Origin: a bacterium
GTDB taxonomy: Bacteria > Patescibacteriota > Minisyncoccia > Phycocordibacterales > UBA1550
NCBI GenBank assembly: GCA_021823825.1
Contig: JAKANJ010000001.1
Span: forward strand, 1-47,070
Direction: 5' to 3'
DNA: 47,070 bases
Part shown: positions 3 through 43,788 of the stretch, piece by piece
Position numbering within the stretch: position 1 is the stretch's first letter
How the letters are laid out: each line of letters starts with the position of its first letter
Made by a program: the position numbers and the translations under genes
The notes under the pieces: generated by a model
Seen by the model: the letters and a program-made list of their open reading frames with translations, nothing else
Told to the model about the DNA's origin: nothing
Database searches by the model: none

Positions 3-1526
3 AAAGAGAGTGTCGCCCGTGCGGCTCTCGTCGCACCATTTGAACTTGCAGGGAAAACATTAAAGGTTGGCGTTTTTAAGCCAACAGAAACAAACACAAG
101 AGAAGCACTTGCGGACCTTGCGGAGCGCGGTTACACCATCGAAACCTATCTTGTTTCTCATGCAAGCCTTGAAAAGGTATGGGAACGTTACAAAGAAATT
201 TCCAGTTCAACAAAAAGTGAAGCTGGTGTTGTTGATATCTCAGATGAAAACATGGAGGACCTCGCAGACAGTTTTACGAACCTCTCAGACGTCTCAACCG
301 CCCTTGCTAACGTGATTACCGAGAAGACGGGTCGTCATATTTCAAAAATGTTCAACATTGTTCTTGCGGGTGCAATTGGTATCCGCGCGTCAGATATCCA
401 TGTTGAGCCAGCAGAAGATTCTGTACATATTCGATATCGTGTTGATGGTGTTCTCCATGAAGTTGCAACGCTCCCAACTACGATCTATCGCCAGTTTAGT
501 TCACGTATTAAATTGATGTCTGGGCTTAAACTCAACATAGGAGCAGAGAGCCAAGATGGTCGCTTTAGTATCAAAATGAAAAGTCTTGAGATTGAAATCC
601 GCGTATCACTTATTCCGGGCGCATACGGGGAGGGAGTGGTTATGCGTATTTTGAACCCCCTCTCCATCAATGTCACCTTAGAGGATCTTGGAATGAGCCC
701 TCAACTGCTTGCTATTGTGGACAGGGAAATCAACAAGCCTCACGGGATGATTCTCAACACTGGCCCTACAGGATCAGGTAAAACGACAACTCTCTACGCA
801 TTTCTTAAAAAGATTTATTCTCCGGAAATCAAAATGATGACCATTGAGGACCCTATTGAGTACCACATGAAAGGTGTTTCGCAAACCCAAGTTGAAGAAA
901 AAAAGGGTTACTCATTCCTTGAAGGACTTCGTGCCGCAATGCGCCAGGACCCTGACGTTATCATGGTTGGTGAAATTCGCGATGGTGAAACAGCAAAGGT
1001 CGCAATTAATGCCGCGCTCACTGGCCACATGGTCTTCTCAACACTGCACACCAACACAGCGGCAGGAACAATCCCCCGCCTTATTGAGCTTGGGGTTACC
1101 CCAAAGATTATCAGTTCTGCGCTTACGGTTGCTCTTGCGCAGCGTCTCTCCCGTAAGCTGTGTAGCGTTTGCAAAAAAGAAGACGTCCCAACAAAGGAAG
1201 AGCAAAAAATTATTGATGAAATGGCCGTTCGAATCCAGAAAAAAACAGGAGCTGTTGTACAAACAAAAAAAGTTTGGCGCGCGGTTGGTTGTACAAAATG
1301 TAACAATACTGGGTATAAAGGACGTGTTGGTATTTTTGAAGCCGTACTCATGACATCTGCTATTGAGTCGCTCCTTAACACAATTCCTAGTGAGCGCGAA
1401 ATCAGCGCAGCGGCGGAAGAACAAAAAATTCTCAACATGCAAGAGGATGGTATTGAGAAAATTTTGGCCGGTGTTACCTCCTTTGATGAGGTTGCACGTG
1501 TTGTTGATTTAGGAGAACGAGAATAG
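3..1526 (+). CDS. pilB: Type IV pilus / type II secretion assembly ATPase, PilB/GspE family (5' end runs off the window)
   Basis: The frame is open from base 3, with no stop before the listed ATG at 252. Motifs: Walker A GPTGSGKTTT, Walker B/Asp box DPDVIMVGEIRD, His box GHMVFSTLHTN, and C-terminal tetracysteine CSVC...CTKC followed by GYKGRVGIFE. Confidence 0.9.
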   Translation, partial: KESVARAALVAPFELAGKTLKVGVFKPTETNTREALADLAERGYTIETYLVSHASLEKVWERYKEISSSTKSEAGVVDISDENMEDLADSFTNLSDVSTALANVITEKTGRHISKMFNIVLAGAIGIRASDIHVEPAEDSVHIRYRVDGVLHEVATLPTTIYRQFSSRIKLMSGLKLNIGAESQDGRFSIKMKSLEIEIRVSLIPGAYGEGVVMRILNPLSINVTLEDLGMSPQLLAIVDREINKPHGMILNTGPTGSGKTTTLYAFLKKIYSPEIKMMTIEDPIEYHMKGVSQTQVEEKKGYSFLEGLRAAMRQDPDVIMVGEIRDGETAKVAINAALTGHMVFSTLHTNTAAGTIPRLIELGVTPKIISSALTVALAQRLSRKLCSVCKKEDVPTKEEQKIIDEMAVRIQKKTGAVVQTKKVWRAVGCTKCNNTGYKGRVGIFEAVLMTSAIESLLNTIPSEREISAAAEEQKILNMQEDGIEKILAGVTSFDEVARVVDLGERE

Positions 1527-1819: not shown

Positions 1820-2854
1820 ATGTCAAGTACCCCACCAAACAACCCTTTGCAGAGCTCAAACAAAGAAGATTTTTCATTCCTTGATCAAGCCTTGCGTCCA
1901 AGTCGTTTTGACGAATACGTAGGACAAGAAACAATCAAAAACAATCTTAAAATTCTTCTCCAAGCTGCCCGCGAGCGAGCACATCCGCCAGAACACCTTC
2001 TTTTTTATGGTCCTCCAGGGCTCGGAAAAACAACCCTGGCGCATCTTATCGCAAATGAAATTGGGTGTCAAGTCAAGTCCACTTCTGGTCCAGCCATTGA
2101 AAAAGTTGGGGATTTGGCCTCAATTCTTACAAACCTTTCACCTGGTGATATTCTCTTTATTGATGAAATTCATCGTCTCAATAAAACAATTGAGGAGGTG
2201 CTGTACCCCGCGATGGAGTCTGGTGTTCTTGATATCATTATTGGTAAAGGACCCTCCGCACGTACCATTCAACTCGATTTGCCCCCCTTCACAATGATTG
2301 CAGCTACCACACGTATTGCACTTCTCTCCGCACCGCTTCGTTCTCGGTTCTCTGGTGGAACATTTCGTCTTGAATTTTATACAGATGAAGAAATTGAAAA
2401 GATCGTACACCGCTCTGCGGGTATTCTGGGTGTTACCCTTGTAGACGACGCGGCACGACAAATTGCTGAGAGAAGCCGCTCTACACCAAGAACCGCAAAT
2501 TACTTATTAAAACGAGCTCGTGACTATGCGCAGGTCCAAAAGAGTGACCTTTCATCAAGATCAGTTGTTGAAGCGCTTTCACTCCTTGAAATTGACCATT
2601 TTGGGTTGACTGCTTTGGATAGAAAAATTCTTGAAACGATTGTCCAAAAATTTAATGGTGGGCCAGTTGGTTTAAGCACAATTGCAGCCGCACTTTCTGA
2701 AGAAATGGCAACCATTGAAGAGGTAAATGAGCCTTATTTAATTCAGCGAGGACTCCTTGAGCGAACACCCCGTGGTCGCATCGCTACACGTCTTGCCTAC
2801 GAGCATCTTGGCTTAGAGTACCCAGAAGAACTTGCGAAAAGGTTGTTTTCATAA
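1820..2854 (+). CDS. ruvB: Holliday junction branch-migration helicase RuvB
   Basis: Motifs: [15 protein letters not shown] (Walker A), [10 protein letters not shown] (Walker B), sensor ATTR. The C-terminal winged-helix region ends PRGRIAT, typical of RuvB. 344 aa. Confidence 0.97.
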
Positions 2855-2941
2855 TTAAAATTGGGACTATTTAGTTACAAATTTAGGGTATTGTCTCTAT
2901 CTAAATTTTTAGCTATGCTGGCAGTATAAAATATACATATC

Positions 2942-3472
2942 ATGTCAGGACACAATAAATGGTCACAAATTAAGAATAAAAAAGCTGTAACGGACAGCAA
3001 AAGAAGTAAGATTTTTGGTAAATACTCAAAACTTATAGCTCTTGAGGCAAAGAAGTCTGCTGGAAACATGGCTTCTTCGGGGCTTCGTGCTGTTATTGAG
3101 CGCGCTCGTAAAGACAATATGTCCAACGATCTTATTGACCGGGCGGTGAAAAAAGGCGCTGGTGGCGATGCGGGGAACATGGAGGCAGTACTCTACGAAG
3201 CTTATGGTCCTGGGGGGTGTGCCATTCTCATTGAAGGGCTGACAGATAATAAGAACCGCACTGTCGCAGAAATAAAACATCTTCTTTCAAAACATAATCT
3301 TGCTCTTGCCGGTCAAGGTGCGGCAATTTGGGCGTTTACAAAAACATCAGAAGGTTATGAGCCCCAAACCACTGTTACTCTTTCTGAGGAAGACGGTGAG
3401 GCGCTCTCTACCCTCCTTGAGGAGCTTGATGACCACGATGATGTTCAGGAAGTGTACACAAACGCCGAATAA
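2942..3472 (+). CDS. yebC: YebC/PmpR-family protein, shortened form (176 aa)
   Basis: The N-terminus MSGHNKWSQIKNKKAVTDSKRSKIFGK, then YEAYGPGGCAILIEGLTDNKNRTVAEI and the C-terminal DDVQEVYTN match YebC hallmarks. About 60 residues of the middle domain are absent. Confidence 0.85.
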   Translation: MSGHNKWSQIKNKKAVTDSKRSKIFGKYSKLIALEAKKSAGNMASSGLRAVIERARKDNMSNDLIDRAVKKGAGGDAGNMEAVLYEAYGPGGCAILIEGLTDNKNRTVAEIKHLLSKHNLALAGQGAAIWAFTKTSEGYEPQTTVTLSEEDGEALSTLLEELDDHDDVQEVYTNAE

Positions 3473-3541
3473 TTTTTTACAACCCCTAAGACCACTTTTC
3501 CTTTTTGCCGTTTTTTAATTTTGTCGTGTTACACTATTGTC

Positions 3542-4024
3542 ATGCGAATCATTGCAATTGATCCTGGGTATGAGCGTCTCGGTATTGCGATTCTTTCTCG
3601 TGGCGATAATGGTGAGAAAAAAGAGACACTTCTTTTTTCAGAGTGTTATAAAACAAAATCCTCGCTAAATTTTTTTGACCGTCTTGAGCTTATTGGACGT
3701 GAGGTTGAGCGTGTCGTGCGTGAATACTCTCCCAAAGCTCTTGCTATTGAAAACTTGTTCATTGAGACAAACCAAAAAACGGCAATGCGCGTTGCGGAAG
3801 CGCGCGGGGCGATTTTGTACCAAGCTCGTGTTTTAGGCTTAGAAATTTTTGAATATACACCCCTGCAAATCAAAGTGGCAACAACAAGCTACGGCCGCGC
3901 CTCAAAAGAGCAGGTAATGACTATGGTTCGCCAGCTTGTTTCAGGTGCGAATAACATAAAACAAGATGATGAGATGGACGCAATTGCAATTGGCCTTACT
4001 CATTTTGCCTACGAGAAGCCATAA
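3542..4024 (+). CDS. ruvC: Crossover junction endodeoxyribonuclease RuvC
   Basis: MRIIAIDPGYERLGIAIL (catalytic Asp), ALAIENLF (catalytic Glu), and a C-terminal DDEMDAIAIGLTH acidic pair. The ATG at 3542 is preferred over the TTG at 3521. Confidence 0.9.
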   Translation: MRIIAIDPGYERLGIAILSRGDNGEKKETLLFSECYKTKSSLNFFDRLELIGREVERVVREYSPKALAIENLFIETNQKTAMRVAEARGAILYQARVLGLEIFEYTPLQIKVATTSYGRASKEQVMTMVRQLVSGANNIKQDDEMDAIAIGLTHFAYEKP

Positions 4025-13076: not shown

Positions 13077-14435
13077 CTAACGAATTTTTTGCATATCGGG
13101 TGTTATTGCTGATGGTAAAATTGTTGGCGTTGTTGTATTACTAGAGGAAACCGTTTGTGGGGTATCAATAAGTCGATACACCCATGGAGTGCTGGTGATT
13201 TTATCAACAAATAAGAGATACGCATCGTTTGAGGACAAGAGGAGGTTGGTCATATCCATCGCTGGAGCTCCGTAGGCGCCCGGGACCATTATGGGTGTTA
13301 CATTGAGGGTTGCGACGTCAATCCTCCACAAAGAATCTGAAAACGAAATAACACCTTGGTACCATTGATCTGGGTATGTTCCTGTTGGGATATTCTGTGG
13401 CACGGCGCAGTAAACGACAGTTTTTTGCATTGTGGACCAAACACATTTTTCTGGAAGTGTTTGAAGAGATATTTGATTACTTGTTTTTTTTGTCGTGTCA
13501 TACACAGAGAGTTGAGGGACGCCAACTTGAGTTCCAGAATATAAAACATATTTTCCGTCAGTGTTTGTGAGTGTTGTAAGGCCATTTATGTCACCTAAAA
13601 TTTTTGTTACTGCTTTTGTCTTAGGGTTCAAGAAAAACATATCACCAGGAACATCAGCGGAAGGTTTTGTGTTTAATGTGACAAGGTTTTTGTTGGGAAA
13701 CTGTGGTAGCCACTCAGTAAATGGGGAGCTAAATATATTTATTGCAGAACTATTTTTAAAATCAGTCACAAACCCCAGTATTGGTCCACCAGTGTCCTTT
13801 AGATAAAAAAGTGTATTACTATTGTCTCCTGCAGTTGAAGCAAAAGGAATATAGTCAGGAAGAAAAACTTCCTCTGTTTTTAAGAAGGATGGCTGAACAC
13901 TCTCTGTGGAGGTGCTTATTGTTATTGGGGTTGCGGATGTGCCTAGGTTGATAATATGGCTTTTGATAAGGCCATCTGTCTGGCTATCAAGGTAGCGGAA
14001 AATAACACTATTTCCTTTATTCCCCCAAAGGGCTTCTGCAACCTGTGGATGTGTTTCGTTTGAAATCCTTGTCTCAGCAAATGTATTAAGCGGTGTTTCA
14101 AAAATATTACCTAAACTCCGCTCCATGTAGCGAGCACTCACAGAAAGAGAAGAACCTGAACCTGTTTCATAAAACCCCGCACCAGCGACAGGGGTTGTGT
14201 GAAGTTGATAAAGACGTGGAAGGGGTGCTCCAGATCCCGGTACAAAATTACTTACGCTACCGTACCCTCCCGCGCCACCAGTGCCACCGCCAGGCGCTTG
14301 GGCACCACTCCCTTGAGGGAATGTGGGGACGCCACTCGTTTGCGGGGTTGTTTTCCTAGAAAGAAGGAAAAATACTCCAACTGCGAGAAGAAGGACAACT
14401 ACGATTACTAGAATGATGAGATTGCGACGTTTCAT
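13077..14435 (-). CDS. Membrane-anchored extracytoplasmic protein, unknown function (last gene of the T4SS-like operon)
   Basis: N-terminal TM LIILVIVVVLLLAVGVFFLL, then a Gly/Pro-rich linker and a roughly 380-aa beta-rich region. No motif recognised. Confidence 0.7.
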   Translation of the reverse strand: MKRRNLIILVIVVVLLLAVGVFFLLSRKTTPQTSGVPTFPQGSGAQAPGGGTGGAGGYGSVSNFVPGSGAPLPRLYQLHTTPVAGAGFYETGSGSSLSVSARYMERSLGNIFETPLNTFAETRISNETHPQVAEALWGNKGNSVIFRYLDSQTDGLIKSHIINLGTSATPITISTSTESVQPSFLKTEEVFLPDYIPFASTAGDNSNTLFYLKDTGGPILGFVTDFKNSSAINIFSSPFTEWLPQFPNKNLVTLNTKPSADVPGDMFFLNPKTKAVTKILGDINGLTTLTNTDGKYVLYSGTQVGVPQLSVYDTTKKTSNQISLQTLPEKCVWSTMQKTVVYCAVPQNIPTGTYPDQWYQGVISFSDSLWRIDVATLNVTPIMVPGAYGAPAMDMTNLLLSSNDAYLLFVDKITSTPWVYRLIDTPQTVSSSNTTTPTILPSAITPDMQKIR

Positions 14436-14451
14436 GAATTAAATATGGTGT

Positions 14452-15378
14452 TTAATAGCAAACGTGCCAATGAGGGCTCGAACTATCTGTTGCTGGGGGG
14501 GTTCCTTCGGCAACGTAGGTGCCCGCGCCGGGGCCTGTTACATAATAATGATTTGCACTATCTACACCACAACCTTTGGCTGGAGCAGTGGGTGCTGGGG
14601 CATGGCTTTTAATATAGTTATCTAGTTGGGATGTGTGATGGAGGTCAACCATTGGCTGTCCTGGACCATGTGTTTGGTGTCCCCACTCTGTTCCACCAGT
14701 TATTGCTACGGAACAGTTGCAAGCTGTTGCGAGGGCTCTAACTCCATTAATGGCGCTCGTGGGGAGTTGGTACACACTTGTGCAATGTGACGGTATCGTG
14801 GTTTGGTCTGTTCTCCCTGTGCAGTCTGGCGTATATACCGAGACAACAGCGTTGTTGGGTAGCGGGGCAGTAAGAAGTGCTCGTTCACTGCTGTCGTCTG
14901 GCCAAGGACCAACAATGGTGCCATTTGCGCCCACACTAGTTCCTGTTGTGGAAGTGGTGCTAGCAAAATCCATTGGTGATAAACCGACAGGGGGCAACGC
15001 AAGATTAAAATTTACCAAATCGGGGTTAATTGAGTTGAGTATCAAATAAGAGGTAAGAACAAGAGCAAGGCCAATGAATGCATTTATCATCTTCTCTTTC
15101 GCGTCCATCTTTGCACTTGGAGAAATCCCCTTTGCAACATATTCTACCCCTGCAAGGATAGACATAATGACCGCAAGACCTGCACCAAGCGCGATAATAA
15201 GCTTTATCGCTCCCGCGAGATAGGTGGACATCGTGTAGGTGGACAGCGTGCTTCCCCCTGGCCCAATAGGTAGTGGTGCAAGGGGTGTATATGATGCGGA
15301 GATATCAGCGTGAGCGATAAAAGCACCTCCAATGAGGGCAACAAGTATTCCGCTAATTATTGGTGCAAATTTTTTCAT
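14452..15378 (-). CDS. T4SS pilin-like (VirB2/TrbC-type two-helix) protein fused to a putative LAS/M15-type zinc peptidase domain
   Basis: A signal peptide ends in AHA. Two hydrophobic helices (YLAGAIKLIIALGAGLAVIMSILAGV and INAFIGLALVLTSYLIL) flank the charged loop AKGISPSAKMDAKEKM. The Cys-rich C-terminal domain carries ITGGTEWGHQTHGPGQPMVDLHH and a terminal PHWHV. Confidence 0.6.
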   Translation of the reverse strand: MKKFAPIISGILVALIGGAFIAHADISASYTPLAPLPIGPGGSTLSTYTMSTYLAGAIKLIIALGAGLAVIMSILAGVEYVAKGISPSAKMDAKEKMINAFIGLALVLTSYLILNSINPDLVNFNLALPPVGLSPMDFASTTSTTGTSVGANGTIVGPWPDDSSERALLTAPLPNNAVVSVYTPDCTGRTDQTTIPSHCTSVYQLPTSAINGVRALATACNCSVAITGGTEWGHQTHGPGQPMVDLHHTSQLDNYIKSHAPAPTAPAKGCGVDSANHYYVTGPGAGTYVAEGTPPATDSSSPHWHVCY

Positions 15379-15387
15379 AACTTTTAA

Positions 15388-16533
15388 TTAAAATAATGTG
15401 TTACCTTGTGTGCTCTCGTTGTTACTAAAATAAATATGGAGAGACTGGCTCGCCTCCTGAAAAGATTTTTCAATATTACTCATAGAGAGTGAAATAAGTG
15501 AATCTCCTTGTGCCCCAGTATCGTTACGAAGGGTGATAGAACGACCATAGTTTTGTGTCGTTTGGCCGTTCATAGACCACGTGTAGCTGAGTGTTTGGGT
15601 GTCAGACTCATCGTTTGAGAAAAAATATGGCTCAGCAACAATCGTAATCTGTTTTTTAGAAAGAGTGTAATTCATTTGTATTGGGTTGTTATATAAAACC
15701 CCCAAAAGTGGGTCCTTCTCATAAAAAAGAATAAATGGTTGCGTTAAGGAAAGTGCGACTTGTGTTTCTGACTGAACACTATTATCAAGGGAGGAGACAA
15801 CAACACTCACATTCGCATCACTATATGGTTTTGGGCCCAAAAAAGAAAAGACATTTTTCCCATATCCAGAAGCGGAACTAACAACCGCTCCATCCTTTTT
15901 CCAAACATACACAAGGTTGCCGGCGCTCAGTGCGTTACCCGGTGTGTTGTTGTCTGGGATAGCGACAACCTGAACTTGCGCTTGTGGGGCGAGAAGGGCT
16001 TTGCCACGGTAAAACGGAGGCGTATAGGTGGTAGCTTGCCAAAGGGTCGTAATACCAATCGGTTGCCACGACAACTTTTTTGTCACATAGTCCCCCTCTG
16101 GGGTGCTAATAGAAACAGAAAGCCGTGTTACTACACCACTTGCGCCGTTTTGAAAACTAAATGTTCTTTGACCAACACCGCTCGATACAAGCTGTCCGTT
16201 GATTGACCACTTGAATGTTGCTTTATCAAGATCACTCAAATAACTATCAATAGTCACAGTTATTGTATCGTTAGGACCAGGATTTTCTGGGGTTGATTTA
16301 ATATCAAGGTAGTTACTGACAGGGTTTGAGCTTTGGGAAAGACTTGCCGACTGTACCGCAGAGCCCGCAAGTTGTTGCAACTGTGAGCTTATTAAGTCAT
16401 ATAGAGTGCTAGATAGGGGGGGTGTCGTGGTGGCGGTGTCCGTTGTTGTCGCTGTTTGTGCATGAACAAAAAACGGTATCACTAAAATTGCTACCAAGAG
16501 AATACGGTGTAATGCAGTGCGCAAATGATGCAT
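15388..16533 (-). CDS. Secreted protein with three internal beta-rich repeats, unknown function
   Basis: A signal peptide ends in VHAQ. The repeated motif appears as TFKWSINGQLVSSGVGQRTFSF, LVYVWKKDGAVVSSASGYGKNVFSF and LSYTWSMNGQTTQNYGRSITL. Confidence 0.7.
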   Translation of the reverse strand: MHHLRTALHRILLVAILVIPFFVHAQTATTTDTATTTPPLSSTLYDLISSQLQQLAGSAVQSASLSQSSNPVSNYLDIKSTPENPGPNDTITVTIDSYLSDLDKATFKWSINGQLVSSGVGQRTFSFQNGASGVVTRLSVSISTPEGDYVTKKLSWQPIGITTLWQATTYTPPFYRGKALLAPQAQVQVVAIPDNNTPGNALSAGNLVYVWKKDGAVVSSASGYGKNVFSFLGPKPYSDANVSVVVSSLDNSVQSETQVALSLTQPFILFYEKDPLLGVLYNNPIQMNYTLSKKQITIVAEPYFFSNDESDTQTLSYTWSMNGQTTQNYGRSITLRNDTGAQGDSLISLSMSNIEKSFQEASQSLHIYFSNNESTQGNTLF

Positions 16534-16586: not shown

Positions 16587-18410
16587 CTATTTAGTAGCCT
16601 GCTCCTCTGAAGCGAGAAGCTCACTTTTTGCTTTTTTTATAGCAAGAATTTGAGATGGATCAGAAGTAATAATTTGGTCTTCTGTGTAGGAGGCAATAGT
16701 GCGGATTGCCACATGTTTCATCCCTGCAAAAAAGATACCCTCCCCCACCCCAGACTCAAGTAAAAGAAACTTCTCTTCATCGGTCAAATTGAAGGCTTTT
16801 TGGACAGCATCTATCGCTGTAGGAGACTGTTTTAATAGAATTTGTATTGAAGAGTTTGTAATAATAGGAAGACCATAAGGGGAGCGGAGGAAGTCATTAA
16901 CATCTTGGGTTATTGTTGCAATTCCTAAGTAGTATTTACGACCTCGCTTTGCAAGAGAGTATAGGAACGCTGCAGTGTCCTCAGACTTCATCATCCACCA
17001 TGCCTCATCAACAACCAACAATCTCTTTCGCAGGGTGCGACGGATTGCATTCCAGATGAAGTGCGTCACCAGATACATTGCAACCGGCTTAAGGTCGTCT
17101 TCCATGTCACGAACCGAGAAAACGATAAATTTACGATTAATATCAACGTTTGAGGGCTGGTTGATAAACCCTGCCCATGACCCACGGGTGTATTTAGTGA
17201 GTTTCGTGAGAATTCCCTCGGCTCCATCCATACCTCCAAGTACAAGCTCAAAATCAGAAAGAAGTGGCGCTTCTATTGCGGTAAAATCAGAGTCAGGAGT
17301 TATATCTTTAAGCGCATAGGTTTCAGAAATTGCGCGATCAACAATCGCATCCTCTTCTGGGGTAAGGCCACCAAGCATTAAGCGGAAAAGACCGACAAGG
17401 TTTATGACGTTGGAGCGCAGGACATCACCAGGAGCTTCATCTTCTCGGGGAACCGGCAGGTCAAAGGGGTTGATGTGGTGTTCGGAGTTTAACGAAATGT
17501 TGAAGTAACGACCCCCCACAGCCTCTGCCATAGACTCATATTCTCGCTCGGGGTCAATAACAATAACATCGGTATCAAACATCAAACTACGAAGTATTTC
17601 GAGTTTAGTGGCGTAGGATTTTCCAGAACCAGACTTTGCAAACGTAACAGAATTGAAGTTTTCAAGAGAAAAACGATCAAAGAGGACAAGCGATGAGTTG
17701 TGGCGATTGATACCATAAAGGATTCCATGGTCTGAAGTGAGGTCAAATGAGACAAATGGGAAGAAACTTGAAAGTGGCTCCGAGTTTATTTTTTGGGTAA
17801 CGGTTATTTTGTCGTCATCCATCGGTATAATGCTCTGGAATGCCTCAACCTGTTGGAAAAGAGCTGGACGAATATAGATAAGACGGGACTCAAGCATTGA
17901 TTTAATCTCTGCCTCTGCATGACCAAGCTCCTCCTCAGAGTCAGCGTATAGCGAAATATACAACCCAACGTCAAACATTTTTTCTTGTGCTTGCTGGAGA
18001 CGATCGCGCAATGCTTCCAGGTCTCGATATGCGGCCTCAAGCATTGGATCCCTCACGAACCCCTTTCCTTCTCGTATATTAATCTGGCTCTGCACCTCAG
18101 CAACCTTTTTTTCAAACTTCTTCATTATTGCCGCGGTGTCAACGGGGTGAATATAAATTGAAATATCAAAAACTTTATCCAAATTGATAAGGGGAGAAAG
18201 CCAGTTGTCGGTAACTGTGCTTGGGTAGGAGGTGATAAAAAATGAACGTACAACCTTTTCTCCGAGGACAAGATCTTTTGAGGTAACTTTGACCGCCGAT
18301 GGTGCTATCACGTCATTTAAATTGAGCGCAGACTCAGCATACATCTCCTGTGGAAGAATAGGGATTACGTTTTCGTCGGTTGTTTTTTGTTTTTTGAAAA
18401 AATCAAACAT
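16587..18410 (-). CDS. virB4: VirB4/TrbE-family type IV secretion ATPase
   Basis: Walker A FAKSGSGKSYAT, Walker B RLLVVDEAWWMM, C-terminal ITQD motif GIATITQDVNDF. 607 aa. The genomic context includes PrgI-like and VirB6-like genes. Confidence 0.88.
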   Translation of the reverse strand: MFDFFKKQKTTDENVIPILPQEMYAESALNLNDVIAPSAVKVTSKDLVLGEKVVRSFFITSYPSTVTDNWLSPLINLDKVFDISIYIHPVDTAAIMKKFEKKVAEVQSQINIREGKGFVRDPMLEAAYRDLEALRDRLQQAQEKMFDVGLYISLYADSEEELGHAEAEIKSMLESRLIYIRPALFQQVEAFQSIIPMDDDKITVTQKINSEPLSSFFPFVSFDLTSDHGILYGINRHNSSLVLFDRFSLENFNSVTFAKSGSGKSYATKLEILRSLMFDTDVIVIDPEREYESMAEAVGGRYFNISLNSEHHINPFDLPVPREDEAPGDVLRSNVINLVGLFRLMLGGLTPEEDAIVDRAISETYALKDITPDSDFTAIEAPLLSDFELVLGGMDGAEGILTKLTKYTRGSWAGFINQPSNVDINRKFIVFSVRDMEDDLKPVAMYLVTHFIWNAIRRTLRKRLLVVDEAWWMMKSEDTAAFLYSLAKRGRKYYLGIATITQDVNDFLRSPYGLPIITNSSIQILLKQSPTAIDAVQKAFNLTDEEKFLLLESGVGEGIFFAGMKHVAIRTIASYTEDQIITSDPSQILAIKKAKSELLASEEQATK

Positions 18411-18415
18411 AAATT

Positions 18416-19069
18416 TTATTGTGCCACTACGTTTTTCTCTGCTTCACCCGGGTTAAAGAGGCGGTAGTAGAGCTCGGTAAGCTCTTCTGTGCCCAAAGGA
18501 ACAACGCGAACACCTGTTCGTGCAAGGCCTTGTTTGACGATACCAACACGCTGTTCAATTTGTGAACGCGCCTCCTCAAAAGCCTCAACCGCGCTTGGGG
18601 ACGGGACAGTGCTCTTTTCTTTTTTACCGCCCAAAAGACCCATAAAACCAGAAGATTTTTCACTGCTTGTTACTGATTTTGGTGGTGCATAGGGCACCAC
18701 AACAATAAAAAGCTTATTCATAATATTGGTTGACTGCGTAATCTTTTGAATAAAACTTATGTATTCATGGATCTGTATTTTGAGAAGTTCATTGAGCTCG
18801 GTTTGTAGGCGAGCCTCAAGAAGTTTTACATAAGGACGGATATCCAGCTTTCTTGACTGTATAAAAATTTGTGTGGAGAACTCAAGAGAATTCAAAAAAT
18901 TTTGAAACTGACCAAGAATGGCAACCTGTTCATCGTCGGACTTGAGAGCAAGGTTTATTGATGAAGCAAGAAGAAGTACGCGGATTGTGCCGTCTTTTAG
19001 GATAACGATTCCATCGCGGATTTCCTTGATTGGAACAAAATCTTGAGCTGCTTTTGATTTAATTGCCAT
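18416..19069 (-). CDS. Soluble T4SS-associated protein resembling a VirB4 N-terminal domain (tentative)
   Basis: 217 aa with no TM, 5 nt upstream of virB4. FVPIKEIRDGIVILKDGTIRVLLLASSINL...FLNSLEFSTQIFIQS follows the pattern seen at VirB4-type N-termini. Assignment is by resemblance only. Confidence 0.35.
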   Translation of the reverse strand: MAIKSKAAQDFVPIKEIRDGIVILKDGTIRVLLLASSINLALKSDDEQVAILGQFQNFLNSLEFSTQIFIQSRKLDIRPYVKLLEARLQTELNELLKIQIHEYISFIQKITQSTNIMNKLFIVVVPYAPPKSVTSSEKSSGFMGLLGGKKEKSTVPSPSAVEAFEEARSQIEQRVGIVKQGLARTGVRVVPLGTEELTELYYRLFNPGEAEKNVVAQ

Positions 19070-19071
19070 AA

Positions 19072-19512
19072 TTATAATTGTTTACCTTTTGGTTCAACTG
19101 TCGGGCTACCTCCGCCAACATCTAAACCAAGTGATTTATTGGAAAGATTTCCAAGAGATAGTGATGTTGGGCTTTGTGGAACCTGGGAAGGAAGCCCTTT
19201 CCCGGCGCCGGGAGATGTTTCTTTTGTCGTTTTTTTCCACGTGTAGAGCTTACTGCCAATATAGTAATTGAAGCCAGCCTCAAGAACACCAATAAACGGC
19301 TTTCCAAGCTTCTCTTTTGGGTAAAATGCAAGCGCCCAAGTGAGGAAACCCAGCCCAAAAATAATCGGCGCGGAGATAAAAATCCAAGGAATGAGTCGGT
19401 AAATAAAATATGCGCCAGCAATACCCCCTGCGACGTAGATAGCTTGCTTTAAGGTGAGTGGTCCGAAAAGTTTGTCCTCAATATCAATATATTGTGGAAT
19501 GTGAAATTGCAT
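19072..19512 (-). CDS. PrgI-family / VirB3-like small membrane protein
   Basis: MQFHIPQYIDIEDKLFGPLTLKQAIYVAGG is followed by two TM helices, the characteristic PrgI-family opening. It lies immediately upstream of the VirB4 module. Confidence 0.7.
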   Translation of the reverse strand: MQFHIPQYIDIEDKLFGPLTLKQAIYVAGGIAGAYFIYRLIPWIFISAPIIFGLGFLTWALAFYPKEKLGKPFIGVLEAGFNYYIGSKLYTWKKTTKETSPGAGKGLPSQVPQSPTSLSLGNLSNKSLGLDVGGGSPTVEPKGKQL

Positions 19513-20427: not shown

Positions 20428-23196
20428 TTATGGTGTCGCTTGTTTCTTTGCCGCCTCAGCCGCTTTCTTTGCCACTTCAGCCTCATCAGCCTCCCTTTTT
20501 GCAGCTATTTTTTGTATCGCTTTAGTCATACTCTCTTCTTCTTTTTCTTCTTTTGCTTTTTTTGCTTTAGCGCTCGCGTTTCTGATCTTGTTTGCTCTAT
20601 TTAATGCAGTTGTTCTTCCTGATGCTGTCCAATTATCACCAGAATCTTTGTGGCGTGCGTAGACCTCACGACGAGCCGCATTTTCTTCAATCAACTCATT
20701 CTTTGCTTTTTTAAGATCAGCGTCTTTTATCTTCTTTATTTCAGCTGTCTCTGCGCGCCGCTTTGCTGCCGCCGCAAGGTCTATTCCCTCAGCAGAAGCT
20801 GAGTGAGTTGAGATTGCAGAGTCCACATTATTTTTTGCCGTTGTGCGTGCCATTGTAGCATCGGATGCAGTTTTTTTCGCTACAGCCTCTGCCCTTTCCG
20901 CATCAGCCTGACCGATCTTTTTTCCTGGGTAGTTAGGATCTTCAAGCGCGTTTGGGTTTGAGGTTATTTTCTTCAGATTTTCAGAAGCTATTGCCAAAGC
21001 TGCGGCTGCGGCTGTTTCCTTTTCAACAAGCTCCTTTTCGGCTTTCTGAGCCGCGACAACGGCTTTACCTGTCTCACTCCCTGCCGCCTTCTCCTCGGCC
21101 TTCTTTAGGTTTTGCTCAGCGTCATAATCTGCACGGTTTGCTAGGTTTGCTTCGTGCTCTTTTTGTTCAATTGCTTTCTGTGGACGCTCCATGAGTTTTG
21201 CCATGTGCTCATTCTTCTTTTCCCTGTCCTCATTCCACTTCTTCCCTTGAGAGGTGTATGTCATCTCACTACCCTTACCTAGGCCCAATGTTTTACCAAC
21301 AGCTCCGCCCCCGATATTGCGCACATCAAAGGTTGCATTCTGTGCCTTGTCTGCGGCAAGAAGCCCAAGCTTGCTAACACCGCGGGTTATTTTGTTTGAG
21401 CTCAACGCTCCCTCCTGGAGCTTCCCACTTGCGGCAAGCATTGATCCAGCTTGACCAGCGGCAAGTGATGCTCCGCCAGACGCGACAGCCACGCCTGCAC
21501 CGATTGCTTTTGAAGCATACTCTGATGCCATTTTGCCAAAGTCGCCACTCATTTTTTCAGCAACCTTCAGCGCTTTCTGCAGCGCAAGGAATATTATTAT
21601 TGCAATAGTGATTGGGACAACAAGCTTATCAAAAATGAAAGTTGAGGTACTTGATGCATCTCCCACAACACCGCTCAAAATACCGCCACCCGCAGAAACA
21701 CCTTGCATAACGAGGTAAATCAAAAAGAGGAAGACCGGCGCAACAAAGGCTTGATCTAGGAGTGTGTTTGACCACCAATTAAAAATACTCCCTTTCGGTA
21801 AGGCAATAGATATAAAAGCAAAGGGTGAAAGAATCATCAAGAACCAAAAAGCAACAAGACGACCAAGGAAAAGCAATGTTCCTTTAAAAAAGATGTATGC
21901 CACCGTGAGGCTTACAAAAGCGGCAACTAAGAAAATAATAAGTGCATCAAGTGGGCTCGTGAGGGCTTTTGCACCTGCTTCACCGAGGAATTTTTGCGGC
22001 TGGAATTGGGCTGCAATTCCACTCGCTATTCCGCGTTGTTGTACATCGCTTGTACTTGTTTTAATTCCTGATGTGTTGGTTGTGCCCATGCTGTTGTACA
22101 CCCCAACCGCAAGAACATTCCCGGCATCTATGACCACCTTTGTAAAAAATAGACTGAAGTTTATCAAAAGAGCAATGACAATGACGTTTATCACTGTCTT
22201 TTTCCAGTTGCCTAACCCCAGCATTGTCTGTATCCCCGTATAAAGGAGAATAAAGATAAAAATCATGTTGGAGAAATTCCTGAGAAGAACCCAGAGCGTT
22301 GATACGAACGGTTTATTTACAAATGCACTACTAATGCTCAAGGACAATGCCATGTCAAAGAAGTAAACAGCGCCCATGAGCAACCAGGAGGATGGAACAT
22401 AAAAAGCATAGTACGCACCGATGGTGAGACAAGCGGGGACATCAAAACCATCAGTTATTCCTTTCCAGCATTGGAGTTTTCCAAGGTTTGGATTTTGGCC
22501 CGCGGGAGGTGCTGCTGTGGTTACGCTTACATTTCCTGTTCCTGTTTCACCTGTCGGGCTTGTGCATGTCAGGCTGTATGTTCCCGCTTGTGGCGGTTTG
22601 ATCGTCCATGTACCACTATATTCTTTGGGGCCTGCCCAATTCCCCGGACCCGAAGCAAGACAACCATTAGGTGCCTTTGTATTTGAGGCTGTCCATGAAA
22701 TATTGATTTGCTGAGTAGAATTGTCGGCAGCGAGTTGTTGTGGTGTTGCGGTGAGAGAAACAACGGGCTGTGTCGCCGAAGTTGGCATATTGACGTTTAC
22801 GTACAAATAAGTGCTTGGGCTAATACTGAAGGTGTCGGGGTTAATGCACTTAATACCGAAAACGACAGGGTTTGCCCAAGTAGAGTCAATGGTAACCGGC
22901 ACTGTCTGTTCACCCGAAGGAGGACGAGAGAGGGGTGTATTTGGATCAATGTTGCCTCCTGATATTAAACACTGTGATGGAGCATTAGATGCCCAGCGGA
23001 GGGTAACGCTATCACCATTATTAATCGTCGTTGTGTCAGTGTTGTCGTTCGGTGTTGATGAGGTTGCGGGCGCAACTGTTGCAGATGTGATCACAACTTT
23101 ATCAGCTGCGTGGGCAAAGGGTGCCATTACAAAGTTAACTCCAAAGAACGTAATTCCCGCTAGTGCAATTAGTGTTGTTTTAAGAATTTTGTTCAT
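20428..23196 (-). CDS. VirB6/TrbL-like polytopic membrane protein with N-terminal extracellular beta domains and a long A/K/E-rich C-terminal tail
   Basis: The likely start is ATG 23196 (MNKILKTTLIALAGITFFGVNFVMAPFAHA signal); the ORF is open to 23280. About 250 aa are beta-rich with repeated W/T/C motifs. About 8 TM helices follow, then a roughly 330-aa charged coiled-coil-like tail. Confidence 0.6.
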   Translation of the reverse strand: MNKILKTTLIALAGITFFGVNFVMAPFAHAADKVVITSATVAPATSSTPNDNTDTTTINNGDSVTLRWASNAPSQCLISGGNIDPNTPLSRPPSGEQTVPVTIDSTWANPVVFGIKCINPDTFSISPSTYLYVNVNMPTSATQPVVSLTATPQQLAADNSTQQINISWTASNTKAPNGCLASGPGNWAGPKEYSGTWTIKPPQAGTYSLTCTSPTGETGTGNVSVTTAAPPAGQNPNLGKLQCWKGITDGFDVPACLTIGAYYAFYVPSSWLLMGAVYFFDMALSLSISSAFVNKPFVSTLWVLLRNFSNMIFIFILLYTGIQTMLGLGNWKKTVINVIVIALLINFSLFFTKVVIDAGNVLAVGVYNSMGTTNTSGIKTSTSDVQQRGIASGIAAQFQPQKFLGEAGAKALTSPLDALIIFLVAAFVSLTVAYIFFKGTLLFLGRLVAFWFLMILSPFAFISIALPKGSIFNWWSNTLLDQAFVAPVFLFLIYLVMQGVSAGGGILSGVVGDASSTSTFIFDKLVVPITIAIIIFLALQKALKVAEKMSGDFGKMASEYASKAIGAGVAVASGGASLAAGQAGSMLAASGKLQEGALSSNKITRGVSKLGLLAADKAQNATFDVRNIGGGAVGKTLGLGKGSEMTYTSQGKKWNEDREKKNEHMAKLMERPQKAIEQKEHEANLANRADYDAEQNLKKAEEKAAGSETGKAVVAAQKAEKELVEKETAAAAALAIASENLKKITSNPNALEDPNYPGKKIGQADAERAEAVAKKTASDATMARTTAKNNVDSAISTHSASAEGIDLAAAAKRRAETAEIKKIKDADLKKAKNELIEENAARREVYARHKDSGDNWTASGRTTALNRANKIRNASAKAKKAKEEKEEESMTKAIQKIAAKREADEAEVAKKAAEAAKKQATP

Positions 23197-23325
23197 CCCG
23201 TTAGAAATAGGCCGCGATTGAAGAGCGACATTGTGTTCTATTTCTTTTGTGTTGCTTCGACTTTTCATTTTTGTGTTCATCGCGATTTCTAACGGGATTC
23301 ATTCGGATAAATTAAAACACGGTAG

Positions 23326-25370: not shown

Positions 25371-26375
25371 ATGAAATTCCGATTAACTTTTGCTGGGGCA
25401 GTGGCAGCTCTTCCCTTTTTTGTTTTCGCTCAAAATTATACCTTTTCCCGCAATTTACAGGTAGGAGTGTCTGGCGATGATGTCCTCGCTTTACAAAAAG
25501 CACTCAATCTTGATTCAGCGACGAAGGTTGCCGATACCGGGCCAGGTTCTCCCGGGAACGAGACTCGATATTTCGGCCCAGCGACTGCGCAGGCGGTAGT
25601 AAGGTTCCAAGAAAAATACAGCGCTGATGTCTTGCAACCCGTTGGGCTCACCGTGGGGACGGGCTATTTTGGCGAAAAAACGCGCGAGAAAATTAATAGT
25701 TTATTAGCAAATTCATCAACAAAAAATACGGCACCAGGCGACACGATATCGACCGCGGGGACCGCACCTGCGCCAGCGGCACCTCAGGGGCTAGAAGGTG
25801 TCGTTATTAAGACCCCCTCGCAATATTCAGGAAAGCCCGGCACATCAATAACCATAGGGGGCTGGGGATTTACGCCCACCAATAATACTATTTATTTTGG
25901 ATCATCCTATAAGGTTGAGAATGTTGCATCAAGTGATGGTTACACGCTCACGTTTAGTGTACCGAGTATCCCCGCGGGGGCTTACGTAATCTCTCTGAAG
26001 AATAGTAATGGCGAGAGCCAAACAAAAACCTTTTTTTCAGTTACGAGTGCAACAGCAACCACGCCCGTCATTGAAAGTATCATGCCAGAAAGTGCAAAAC
26101 GGGGTGAGACGGTAACAATAAAAGGAACAGGATTCTCCGCGACGGGGAACATGTTGCGCACCAGTCTCGGAGTTTTTGAGAATATTCCGTCTGTGGATGG
26201 GACGACGATACTGTTTACTATACCCACAAATACTTTTACAACGCCACCAACAGGTTTTTCTATACCAACAAGCACTCCGCCGGTGACTGCGGCAATATTT
26301 ACAATGCCCGTATGGGTTTATGTTGCTAACGCAAATGGGCTAAGCAATGGACAAAGTTTTAATGCCAGTTTTTAA
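25371..26375 (+). CDS. Secreted peptidoglycan-binding protein with two IPT/TIG-like beta domains
   Basis: A signal peptide, then the PG_binding_1-like GVSGDDVLALQKALN...GPATAQAVVRFQEKY. Two repeats follow: GTSITIGGWGFTPTNNTIYFG and GETVTIKGTGFSATGNML. Confidence 0.75.
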   Translation: MKFRLTFAGAVAALPFFVFAQNYTFSRNLQVGVSGDDVLALQKALNLDSATKVADTGPGSPGNETRYFGPATAQAVVRFQEKYSADVLQPVGLTVGTGYFGEKTREKINSLLANSSTKNTAPGDTISTAGTAPAPAAPQGLEGVVIKTPSQYSGKPGTSITIGGWGFTPTNNTIYFGSSYKVENVASSDGYTLTFSVPSIPAGAYVISLKNSNGESQTKTFFSVTSATATTPVIESIMPESAKRGETVTIKGTGFSATGNMLRTSLGVFENIPSVDGTTILFTIPTNTFTTPPTGFSIPTSTPPVTAAIFTMPVWVYVANANGLSNGQSFNASF

Positions 26376-32552: not shown

Positions 32553-33548
32553 TTGCTATTTATTGGGGTTTGGCTAAGTACGTCGCATACGCAAATTGCA
32601 TCTGCAAGTCAGGTTTCTATTTTGAACTCCGAGAACTCCCAAACAATTGACCTCCTCCAAGCGGGATCAATGATTGACCAAAACGGTGGTAAGGGAGGTG
32701 GAGACATTACTATTCTGGATAATACCGCAATAGCGCCCGATGCGGGACCAGCAGGGACTATCGCAGATATCCAAGCAAATGATTATCAGGGTGCTACGAG
32801 CGTATATATTGTTCACAAGGGCGACACCTTGCCACAGATTGCAAAAATGTTCAATTTAAATTTGGACACAATTCTTTGGGCAAACAATTTGACACGGAAC
32901 TCGGCAATTCATGAGGGAGATTCGCTCGTTATTCTCCCCGTTAACGGCGTTCAGCATATTGTAAAAAAGGGTGACACTATAAATAGTATTGCGAAGAAAT
33001 ACGGCGCAAAAGTTGCCGATGTTCTTGATTTTAACGATATTCTCGCTGGGCAGGTTCTTTCTGTTGGCGACATTATTATCGTTCCCAATGGGATAACACA
33101 AATCAATACCACCTCGAAATCATCATCTTCTCCGGTGGTGAGCTCTTTGGCTGCCGTGCGCGCAAGGCTCATCGCGTCCTATCCTTCTATGCCGGGATAC
33201 TTCAAGAACCCACTTCCTGAAGGACATAAAACACAAGGAATCCATGGATACAACGGTGTTGATCTTGCGGCACCTAAGGGTAGTCCTGTATATGCTGCGG
33301 CAGACGGTATTGTCTCTGTTAGCCACTTTAAACCTTTGACCGACCCATGGTTTGGCGGGTATGGTAACTATATTGATATTAATCACCCAAATGGGACGCA
33401 AACACGATATGCGCATCTTAGCGAAGTTTATGTAAAGGCTGGTGCGCACATAAGCCAAGGACAGATAATCGGTGCAGTTGGAAGCACGGGGGAATCAACA
33501 GGGCCACACCTCCACTTTGAAATTCACGGAGCAAAAAATCCTTTTTAA
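32553..33548 (+). CDS. Secreted LysM-LysM-M23 (lysostaphin-type) peptidoglycan endopeptidase; 5' end uncertain
   Basis: Two LysM repeats (YIVHKGDTLPQIAKMF..., HIVKKGDTINSIAKKY...). M23 motifs are HGYNGVDLAA, GNYIDINHPNG and TGPHLHFEI. The only in-frame canonical start is the TTG at 32553. Confidence 0.88.
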   Translation: MLFIGVWLSTSHTQIASASQVSILNSENSQTIDLLQAGSMIDQNGGKGGGDITILDNTAIAPDAGPAGTIADIQANDYQGATSVYIVHKGDTLPQIAKMFNLNLDTILWANNLTRNSAIHEGDSLVILPVNGVQHIVKKGDTINSIAKKYGAKVADVLDFNDILAGQVLSVGDIIIVPNGITQINTTSKSSSSPVVSSLAAVRARLIASYPSMPGYFKNPLPEGHKTQGIHGYNGVDLAAPKGSPVYAAADGIVSVSHFKPLTDPWFGGYGNYIDINHPNGTQTRYAHLSEVYVKAGAHISQGQIIGAVGSTGESTGPHLHFEIHGAKNPF

Positions 33549-43576: not shown

Positions 43577-43652
43577 CGGGGTGTGGTGTAACGGCTAACA
43601 TTCCTGTTTTGGGTACAGGCGACTCCGGGTTCGAATCCCGGCACCCCGACCA
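43577..43652 (+). tRNA. tRNA-Pro (anticodon UGG) with genomically encoded CCA
   Basis: Hand-folded cloverleaf. Acceptor CGGGGTG/CACCCCG (C1-G72), anticodon stem CCTGT/ACAGG with loop TT-TGG-GT (G37), T-arm CCGGG-TTCGAAT-CCCGG, discriminator A, then CCA at 43650-43652. Confidence 0.92.
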
Positions 43653-43716
43653 TGATTTTAATTGGTATCGGGGGGTATTTGACAAAATGTTGAATATCCC
43701 TGCGAACCCCTCGTCG

Positions 43717-43788
43717 TTCAACGGATAGGACGCAAGCTTCCGAAGCCTGTGACGCAGGTTCGATTCCTGCCGAGGGGACAATAGCAAA
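43717..43788 (+). tRNA. tRNA-Arg (anticodon CCG), no encoded CCA
   Basis: Hand-folded cloverleaf. Acceptor CCCCTCG/CGAGGGG, D-arm GTTC/GGAC with GG in the loop, anticodon stem CAAGC/GCCTG (one A-C mismatch) with loop TT-CCG-AA, T-arm GCAGG-TTCGATT-CCTGC, discriminator A. Confidence 0.82.

Follow-up and report, generated by a model that had tools for sequence, protein, structure and literature searches.

The window analysed here is a stretch of 47,070 nucleotides (contig JAKANJ010000001.1 of assembly GCA_021823825.1) from a Patescibacteria chromosome at the replication origin, with dnaA, dnaN, rnpA, yidC, ksgA, PBP1, ruvABC and tRNA genes. Adjoining yidC-rnpA-dnaA is a minus-strand operon for a type IV secretion system (T4SS), and our subject is one of its genes, which encodes a pilin fused to a second, unannotated domain. 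The first part of the operon encodes, in order, proteins of 272 amino acids (aa) and 368 aa, a 950-aa polytopic protein, a 262-aa protein and PrgI/VirB3; it continues with a 217-aa TraC-like protein and VirB4, then a 381-aa protein that is secreted, the pilin fusion and lastly a 452-aa protein with a membrane anchor. This layout agrees with published Patescibacteria T4SS loci (PMC12102498). The pilin fusion is the second gene downstream of virB4. Its open reading frame (ORF), at window 14452-15378 (-), has its ATG start 9 nt past the stop codon of the preceding gene and a product of 308 aa (Table 1).

The original prediction had read the N-terminal part of this protein as a pilin-like T4SS component, and that reading holds. 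Residues 52-115 match Pfam PF18895 (T4SS_pilin; E=6.5e-7), scoring 29.8 bits where the curated cutoff is 26.6. Three segments are hydrophobic (residues 4-22, 60-78 and 97-115), the last two of which are joined by the charged loop KGISPSAKMDAKEK, and the AlphaFold2 model of the full-length protein, built from a 48-sequence alignment, contains a helical hairpin (50-82 and 87-117). The end of the signal peptide, AHA/D, precedes a conserved YTPLAPLP motif, which is followed by the first transmembrane (TM) helix, the charged loop, the second TM helix and NSINPxLV. Because the Pfam match agrees with the topology and with the genomic context, an operon with VirB4 and PrgI, we state with high confidence that the N-terminal half is a VirB2-type T4SS pilin. 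A hidden Markov model (HMM) of the family's N-domain matches this ORF only, and it detects no second pilin of the same type in the window. Behind the pilin comes a linker of ~30 aa, which is disordered and lacks secondary structure in the model and which, in the homologue alignment, is neither conserved nor constant in length.

The protein shares the signal peptide and two-helix hairpin, the virB4/prgI neighbourhood near dnaA and the monoderm host lineage with the VirB2/TrbC pilins already described from Patescibacteria (PF18895; Quinonero-Coronel et al. 2025, PMC12102498). Those pilins, among them the essential pilin array of Southlakia epibionticum, are small and are encoded singly or in arrays of 2-11, whereas the window has a single gene whose product carries a linker and a 151-aa domain. 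A genome scan with this protein as the single query found 11 Patescibacteria loci. The arrangement PrgI, TraC-like, VirB4, ~380-aa protein, pilin, ~450-aa protein is common to five related loci, and the orthologous loci L002 (58% identity) and L004 (46%) repeat the layout, adjacency to yidC-rnpA-dnaA included.

The C-terminal domain and its family

Modelled alone from 32 sequences, the 151-aa C-terminal domain (C-domain) gave a confident AlphaFold2 structure, with a predicted local distance difference test (pLDDT) of 89.8 and a predicted TM score (pTM) of 0.87. The elements of the model follow in the order helix, strand, helix 50-63, strands 66-71 and 86-90, helix 93-101 and strands 119-123, 129-134 and 146-150. 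A Cys-rich C-terminus with ITGGTE and PHWHV had been predicted, and both motifs are in place, at residues 226-231 and 302-306 respectively, together with HQTHGPGQPMVDLHH at 234-248 and six Cys (186, 199, 220, 222, 270 and 307). The HxH of the terminal motif falls in strand 146-150, the last of the C-domain model.

Conservation was counted over 134 family members, each representing a cluster at <=50% identity, and it shows that these features did not arise by chance. The residues C199, E231, H234, H237, D245, H303 and H305 are kept in 134/134, whilst R166 (132/134), E291 (131/134), C186, T200, C220, C222 and G228-T230 are near-invariant. HxH is present in every representative, always with a spacing of 2, and lies 3-4 residues from the C-terminus in 105/134. 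The spacing between H237 and D245 is x7 in 112/134, x6 in 7/134 and longer in the remainder, and the equivalent of E291, in a Y-V-x-E strand, sits 5-17 residues ahead of H305. We propose that the motif block at residues 226-246 holds the catalytic His and H-x7-D zinc ligands; zinc would be bound by H237, D245 and H305, with H234, H303 and E291 as candidate catalytic residues.

When 1.84 billion cluster representatives were searched with the family profile, 2268 proteins of the C-domain family were recovered (E<=1e-3), of which 1363 reach E<=1e-10; each match stands for a cluster at 50% identity. A PF18895 pilin precedes the C-domain in 120 of the 134 top representatives, and TrbC (PF04956) was matched in 35. 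The C-domain itself had no match in Pfam, NCBIfam, PHROG or PDB sequence searches (phmmer/hmmsearch). It is a large family without a Pfam model that is almost always pilin-fused, and within this pilin clade the pilin-peptidase-like fusion is the rule rather than a rarity. We flag that a domain family of >2000 clusters at 50% identity has no Pfam model. An SLT lytic transglycosylase domain is additionally present in 3/134 representatives; in one of them, the 800-aa P0219, a ~300-aa N-terminal extension is followed by the pilin (332-397), the C-domain (454-581) and SLT (641-742). Large extensions ahead of the pilin also occur in P0176 (677 aa), P0222, P0227, P0231 and P0180.

The 110 nearest full-protein homologues were then classified by family HMMs. 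In 71/110 the C-terminal domain is like that of the window protein. A different domain, here called b/c (WRITESWPPTVxHxSxCHxxGTCADL...YES...SFHV), occurs in 14/110, a VanY-type domain in 11/110 (12 with P0108) and a SKHLSGxAFD...VWHxQF domain, M15-like by motif, in 4/110; dockerin repeats account for a further 4/110 (P0059, P0068, P0069 and P0074), and the remainder are short or of other kinds. The LAS-type domains total 30/110. The original prediction had proposed a survey of pilin-fused C-domains, and with the window-type domain included the count comes to 101/110. By its matches to Pfam VanY (2e-12) and PDB 5hnm (8e-8), the C-domain of P0108 is a genuine VanY/LdcB relative, and P0042 likewise matches PF02557. 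In the orthologous operon slot, L006 carries type c, whilst L007 (P0108) and L008 (P0042) carry VanY types. Therefore, orthologous genes have had their C-domains swapped, and such replacements as can be identified are LAS peptidases. The dockerin (PF00404) C-regions of P0059, P0068, P0069 and P0074 are ~400 aa long and sit on a pilin N-domain that is 55-64% identical.

Similarity to LAS peptidases

Of the known metallopeptidases, the C-domain most closely resembles, in its sequence pattern, the Hedgehog/M15A type (TE-W, a Glu before HxH, and HxH). For Sonic hedgehog (Shh), we take H135 to have a catalytic role. Zinc is bound in Shh by H141, D148 and H183, with E177 as the general base, and the DD-peptidase signature is H-X(6)-D (range H-X(3-6)-D) plus H-X-H (PMC6027127). 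The family order E231/H234/H237/D245/E291/H303/H305 parallels H135/H141/D148/E177/H181/H183 of Shh. The elements pair likewise: a helix and the ITGGTE strand with a helix and VTEGW, H234 with HH, then a helix, YVxE with YYES and HWHVCY with HIHCSV. The family consensus at H237/D245, tHgPGxxVDL, aligns with the Shh zinc-ligand segment, and by pattern only E291 may correspond to Shh E177 (YYES, 6 residues before H183). The secondary-structure order of the C-domain model appears compatible with the LAS fold (MEROPS M15, Pfam clan Peptidase_MD), an alpha/beta sandwich whose ligands sit on neighbouring strands.

The original prediction had likened the domain to VanY through an SxHxxGxAxD pattern. 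This did not hold up: since there is no PF02557 match the C-domain is not a VanY member, and its signature is nearer Hedgehog/M15A. VanY/LdcB (PF02557, M15B) occupies the same slot behind the same pilin in sister genomes and has the kind of zinc site that is proposed for the C-domain, but neither SxHxxGxAxD nor the single-His (ExxH/WH) context is present in the window protein, which ends in an HxH of M15A/Hedgehog type. With LAS enzymes such as ShhN, Hh-like M15A, the Streptomyces albus DD-carboxypeptidase and MepK it shares the element order and seven conserved residues. These enzymes are extracellular and act on peptidoglycan, and it is by pattern that the C-domain may be likened to them. 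Unlike them, it has H-x7-D rather than x6, lacks a Ca-binding acidic cluster, carries an additional subdomain of 48 residues at its N-terminus together with three putative disulfides, and terminates 3 residues past HxH.

Profile comparisons link the family to Hedgehog through the b/c domain. The b/c family, once expanded to 96 sequences, aligned with ShhN, for which a sequence identical to PDB 6e1h chain C was used, with an hhalign probability of 86% (P=5.4e-6) and 73 columns in register, scoring 39.5 against 11.9 for the reversed control. The window family in turn scored 23.5 against b/c with hhalign defaults (P=0.0026), above a column-shuffle null of 12.3+-2.4 (0/100 reaching the score). With relaxed gaps the score rose to 40.1, against 14.5+-3.1 (0/100) for the column-shuffle and 24.3+-5.5 (1/100) for the block-shuffle; under the same scheme the reversed controls scored 13.0 and 13.5, the pilin N-domain 20.0, and b/c against Shh 43.8. 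Moreover, the best hhalign local alignments with ShhN, MepK and the VanY-type family placed H237/D245 in the same register all three times, with the motif block aligned to SYHTKGQAMDF of MepK and PHVKGxGVDL of the VanY-type. The b/c family, of which we found 94 proteins, is a second unannotated pilin-fused domain, apparently a Patescibacterial Hedgehog-like one; its profile had no Pfam match, and a PDB hmmsearch with it was also empty.

Several results weigh against a LAS assignment. The C-domain compared by default hhalign with ShhN, MepK and the VanY-type gave insignificant values (P=0.03-0.22), and an unrelated control, the pilin N-domain, did about as well (P=0.0065). In the default comparison with b/c, 10-column block-shuffling reached the score in 9/120 cases and the pilin N-domain control scored 20.1, and since so many block-shuffles succeed the score derives mostly from one or two motifs; the relaxed-gap result is supportive, not decisive, because the scheme was picked after three tries. 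None of 32 family members matched Pfam M15, VanY or HH_signal even at E<=10, and HMM searches of PHROGs, NCBIfam and PDB returned no LAS match for the C-domain. Foldseek with the C-domain found no LAS structure among the top 50 in PDB (best E=0.44). In BFVD, a set of viral structures, a Peptidase M15A came first (E=0.57) and further M15/M15A proteins stood at ranks 16 and 19, but these matches are insignificant (E 0.57-4, TM scores 0.28-0.37). Lastly, the H-D spacing of x7 is outside the canonical x3-6. As to the power of these tests, hhalign is powerless at this alignment depth, since ShhN against MepK and MepK against the VanY-type were equally insignificant; the E. coli MepK alignment comprised 120 homologues, all >=76% identical, and hence gave a shallow profile. 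Default comparisons with the VanY-type, b, c and d groups at this depth were in register and insignificant, global hhalign was uninformative, and Foldseek with the full-length model returned only helical-hairpin noise from the pilin part.

These negatives leave room for a new metal-binding fold with a convergent H..D/HxH arrangement, in which case the domain would have another activity, for example as a secreted toxin, or as a hydrolase with a non-peptidoglycan target in a host. The lack of any significant structural or profile match to LAS despite a confident model is in keeping with such a fold, as are the non-canonical spacing and the first 48 domain residues (with R166, C186 and C199), which have no LAS counterpart. 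Nevertheless, six catalytic-type residues are ordered and placed on secondary-structure elements as in Shh, the similarity to the Hedgehog-like b/c domain is colinear, with scores above those of the shuffled and reversed controls, the orthologous slot otherwise holds LAS domains, and M15A is the only named fold whose matches come near the top. Taken together, we consider a new fold rather improbable. The slot swapping, the profile chain through b/c to ShhN and the co-occurrence with SLT lead us instead to the view that the C-domain is likely a LAS-type metallohydrolase, and probably a new branch of the Hedgehog/DD-peptidase superfamily. The M15 assignment of the original prediction thus stands in part: the proposed ligands are invariant in orthologues and form part of a complete set of Hedgehog-like residues (H, H, D, E and HxH), whilst Foldseek gave no significant LAS match and Pfam no M15 or VanY match.

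Four other identities were rejected from general knowledge of the folds and the secondary structure of the model. M23 is all-beta, and the C-domain is alpha/beta. Amidase_2/PGRP and Amidase_3 have another ligand order and spacing, and their Pfam models would have matched. An HNH/His-Me nuclease does not fit, as HxH is in the terminal strand with no helix after it. A papain-like/CHAP enzyme would have C199 as nucleophile, but this Cys precedes the helix by 7 residues, and all six Cys resemble disulfide partners.

A LAS-derived domain could also have become a binding module, that is, a displayed adhesin for the stem peptides of a host wall or another surface ligand, much as Hedgehog uses its zinc cleft for binding. 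Four close homologues (P0059, P0068, P0069 and P0074) do bear non-enzymatic dockerin-type domains, the diversity of C-domains at one slot fits host-range adaptation, and pilin variation has been proposed to aid host adaptation (PMC12102498). Against this, the full catalytic set is kept, down to the general-base Glu (131/134) and the leading His of HxH, and co-occurrence with SLT points to wall degradation. Pseudo-enzymes usually lose their catalytic residues. This has happened in Drosophila Hh (PMC6027127). We regard the adhesin as quite unlikely, and return to an enzyme, for which peptidoglycan is a reasonably likely substrate.

Display, processing and substrate

Overall, the best explanation, which we hold with modest confidence, is a pilin with a linker-borne, divergent LAS (Hedgehog/DD-peptidase, MEROPS M15-like) zinc hydrolase that cuts wall peptides. 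As the only VirB2-type pilin detected in a chromosomal, origin-proximal T4SS operon of the Paceibacteria type, the protein would be exported by Sec, its signal peptide cleaved and its hairpin inserted in the membrane with the C-terminus outside. The flexible linker of ~30 residues would then hold the disulfide-stabilised 151-aa domain on the outer face, that of the membrane at the T4SS or, should the subunit polymerise, that of the pilus. There the domain may cut the peptide bonds of peptidoglycan stems or cross-links, and its substrate could be the cell's own wall, letting the machine through in a VirB1-like manner, or the wall of the epibiont's host cell.

In solved conjugative pili the inter-helix loop is lumenal and the joined termini of cyclic TrhA are on the exterior (PMC12037004). 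By analogy with this geometry, a linker-borne C-domain would be displayed outward, at the membrane or along the filament. The literature searched held no structure of a Patescibacterial T4SS pilus. At its furthest, this leads to a 'catalytic pilus' of Paceibacteria-type Patescibacteria, in which every subunit of the T4SS filament displays a zinc peptidase (VanY- or Hedgehog-like in sister lineages). We judge this unlikely; if true, such a pilus would digest host peptidoglycan at contact and so open a route for the essential T4SS-dependent exchange with the host, and the C-domain would form a new and deeply divergent Hedgehog/DD-peptidase branch.

Alternatively, the C-domain may be cleaved off in maturation, which would release a soluble wall hydrolase where the pilus is assembled and leave the pilus undecorated; in a variant, the hairpin never polymerises and serves as a membrane anchor only. 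C-terminal processing is known, with 27 residues removed from RP4 TrbC and 5 from TrhA (PMC12037004). In addition, the linker is protease-accessible, being disordered and variable, this is the sole pilin gene detected in the operon, and 17 kDa on every subunit would be unusual. On the other hand, the linker alignment shows no conserved motif for cleavage, and Pfam scans found no TraF-like or signal-peptidase-like gene in the T4SS operon. We think such processing somewhat unlikely; enzymologically it is compatible with the linker-borne hydrolase that we prefer.

A pilin-borne hydrolase had been suggested to substitute for a missing VirB1-like enzyme. The lack of such an enzyme is borne out for the operon, in which no recognisable wall hydrolase was detected, and for the operon only, because the LysM+M23 and PG_binding_1 proteins are encoded close by. 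M23 is itself a LAS enzyme, and it is possible that both products, encoded elsewhere than in the operon, are helpers of VirB1 type. VirB1 is missing from most genomes that have VirB2-like pilins (PMC12102498), and this absence would be explained if the pilin bears its own wall peptidase. Among monoderm systems, the VirB1-like PrgK and the TraG of pIP501 (SLT + CHAP) likewise place a putative wall degrader in a T4SS operon, and the combination of C-domain and SLT in P0219 echoes their two-domain design. Unlike these hydrolases, the window protein, which has no SLT domain by Pfam, is a putative metallopeptidase rather than a glycosylase or cysteine peptidase, and is fused to the pilin rather than being a separate membrane-anchored protein.

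The T4SS of Patescibacteria and their VirB2-like pilins have already been published; what goes undescribed in the papers searched is the domain architecture, together with the unannotated, probably LAS-derived domain family. Wall-peptidase-fused pilins are not described in the survey of these systems (PMC12102498), in two reviews (PMC12857230 and PMC11665869) or in a structure-clustering preprint that mentions PF18895, and our literature search found no paper on a pilin-VanY fusion in the Candidate Phyla Radiation. The role of the essential Patescibacteria T4SS has been called completely unknown (PMC11665869), and the fusion offers a testable hypothesis for how epibionts breach their own or a host wall.

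Neighbouring genes

Table 1. Coordinates of the pilin fusion, its parts and other features in the window
Feature	Position	Strand	Remarks
Signal peptide, residues 1-24 (MKKFAPIISGILVALIGGAFIAHA, cleaved before D)	15307..15378	-	hydrophobic 4-22; AxA-type end
VirB2-like T4SS pilin domain, residues 28-127	14998..15297	-	PF18895 and AlphaFold2 helices
Ser/Thr/Gly/Pro-rich variable linker, residues 128-157	14908..14997	-	pLDDT 46-58
151-aa globular domain, residues 158-308, putative LAS/Hedgehog-like zinc hydrolase	14455..14907	-	AlphaFold2
Motif block ITGGTEWGHQTHGPGQPMVDL, residues 226-246	14641..14703	-	E231, H234, H237, D245 invariant
E291 in YVAE strand, proposed general base	14506..14508	-	E in 131/134
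H303-W-H305 (HxH), last beta-strand, 3 residues before C-terminus	14464..14472	-	both invariant
Membrane-anchored 452-aa protein downstream of pilin gene	13077..14435	-	N-terminal TM segment
Secreted 381-aa protein between virB4 and pilin gene	15388..16533	-	signal peptide
VirB4-family ATPase	16587..18410	-	P-loop_TraG 1.2e-24, also AAA_10, CagE_TrbE_VirB
217-aa protein between prgI and virB4	18416-19069	-	orthologues annotated PF26593 'TraC-like'
PrgI/VirB3-like protein	19072..19512	-	Pfam PF12666 at 7.6e-7
950-aa polytopic membrane protein, VirB6-like	20428..23280	-	~7 hydrophobic segments
PG_binding_1 + TIG-repeat protein	25371-26375	+	adjoins T4SS operon
LysM x2 + Peptidase_M23 protein	32553-33548	+	~7 kb further on
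Type IV pilus/type II secretion system ATPase (T2SSE, E=2e-118)	252-1526	+	ordinary chromosomal content
XerC/D-type tyrosine recombinase	38303-39247	+	ordinary chromosomal content
Four tRNA genes: Arg-TCG, Gly-GCC, Pro-TGG, Arg-CCG	41580-43779		ordinary chromosomal content

The genes that flank the pilin fusion, for the 381-aa and 452-aa proteins, hold the same positions in 5/5 related loci (L002, L004 and L006-L008). The former has a PKD_3 match in the Pfam scan, below threshold only, and the latter matches no Pfam family. Both are likely to be undescribed T4SS components of this lineage. The 950-aa protein, whose N-terminal region is extracellular and whose long C-terminal tail is rich in Ala, Lys and Glu, keeps its position in L002, L006 and L007. 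It has no Pfam match, and therefore we label it VirB6-like from position and topology. The 217-aa protein was unmatched in our Pfam scan although its orthologues carry PF26593, which is a discrepancy between Pfam versions. At L004, a ParE-toxin gene, a small upstream ORF and a '23S_rRNA_IVP' gene are inserted within the T4SS operon around prgI (2577-4018).

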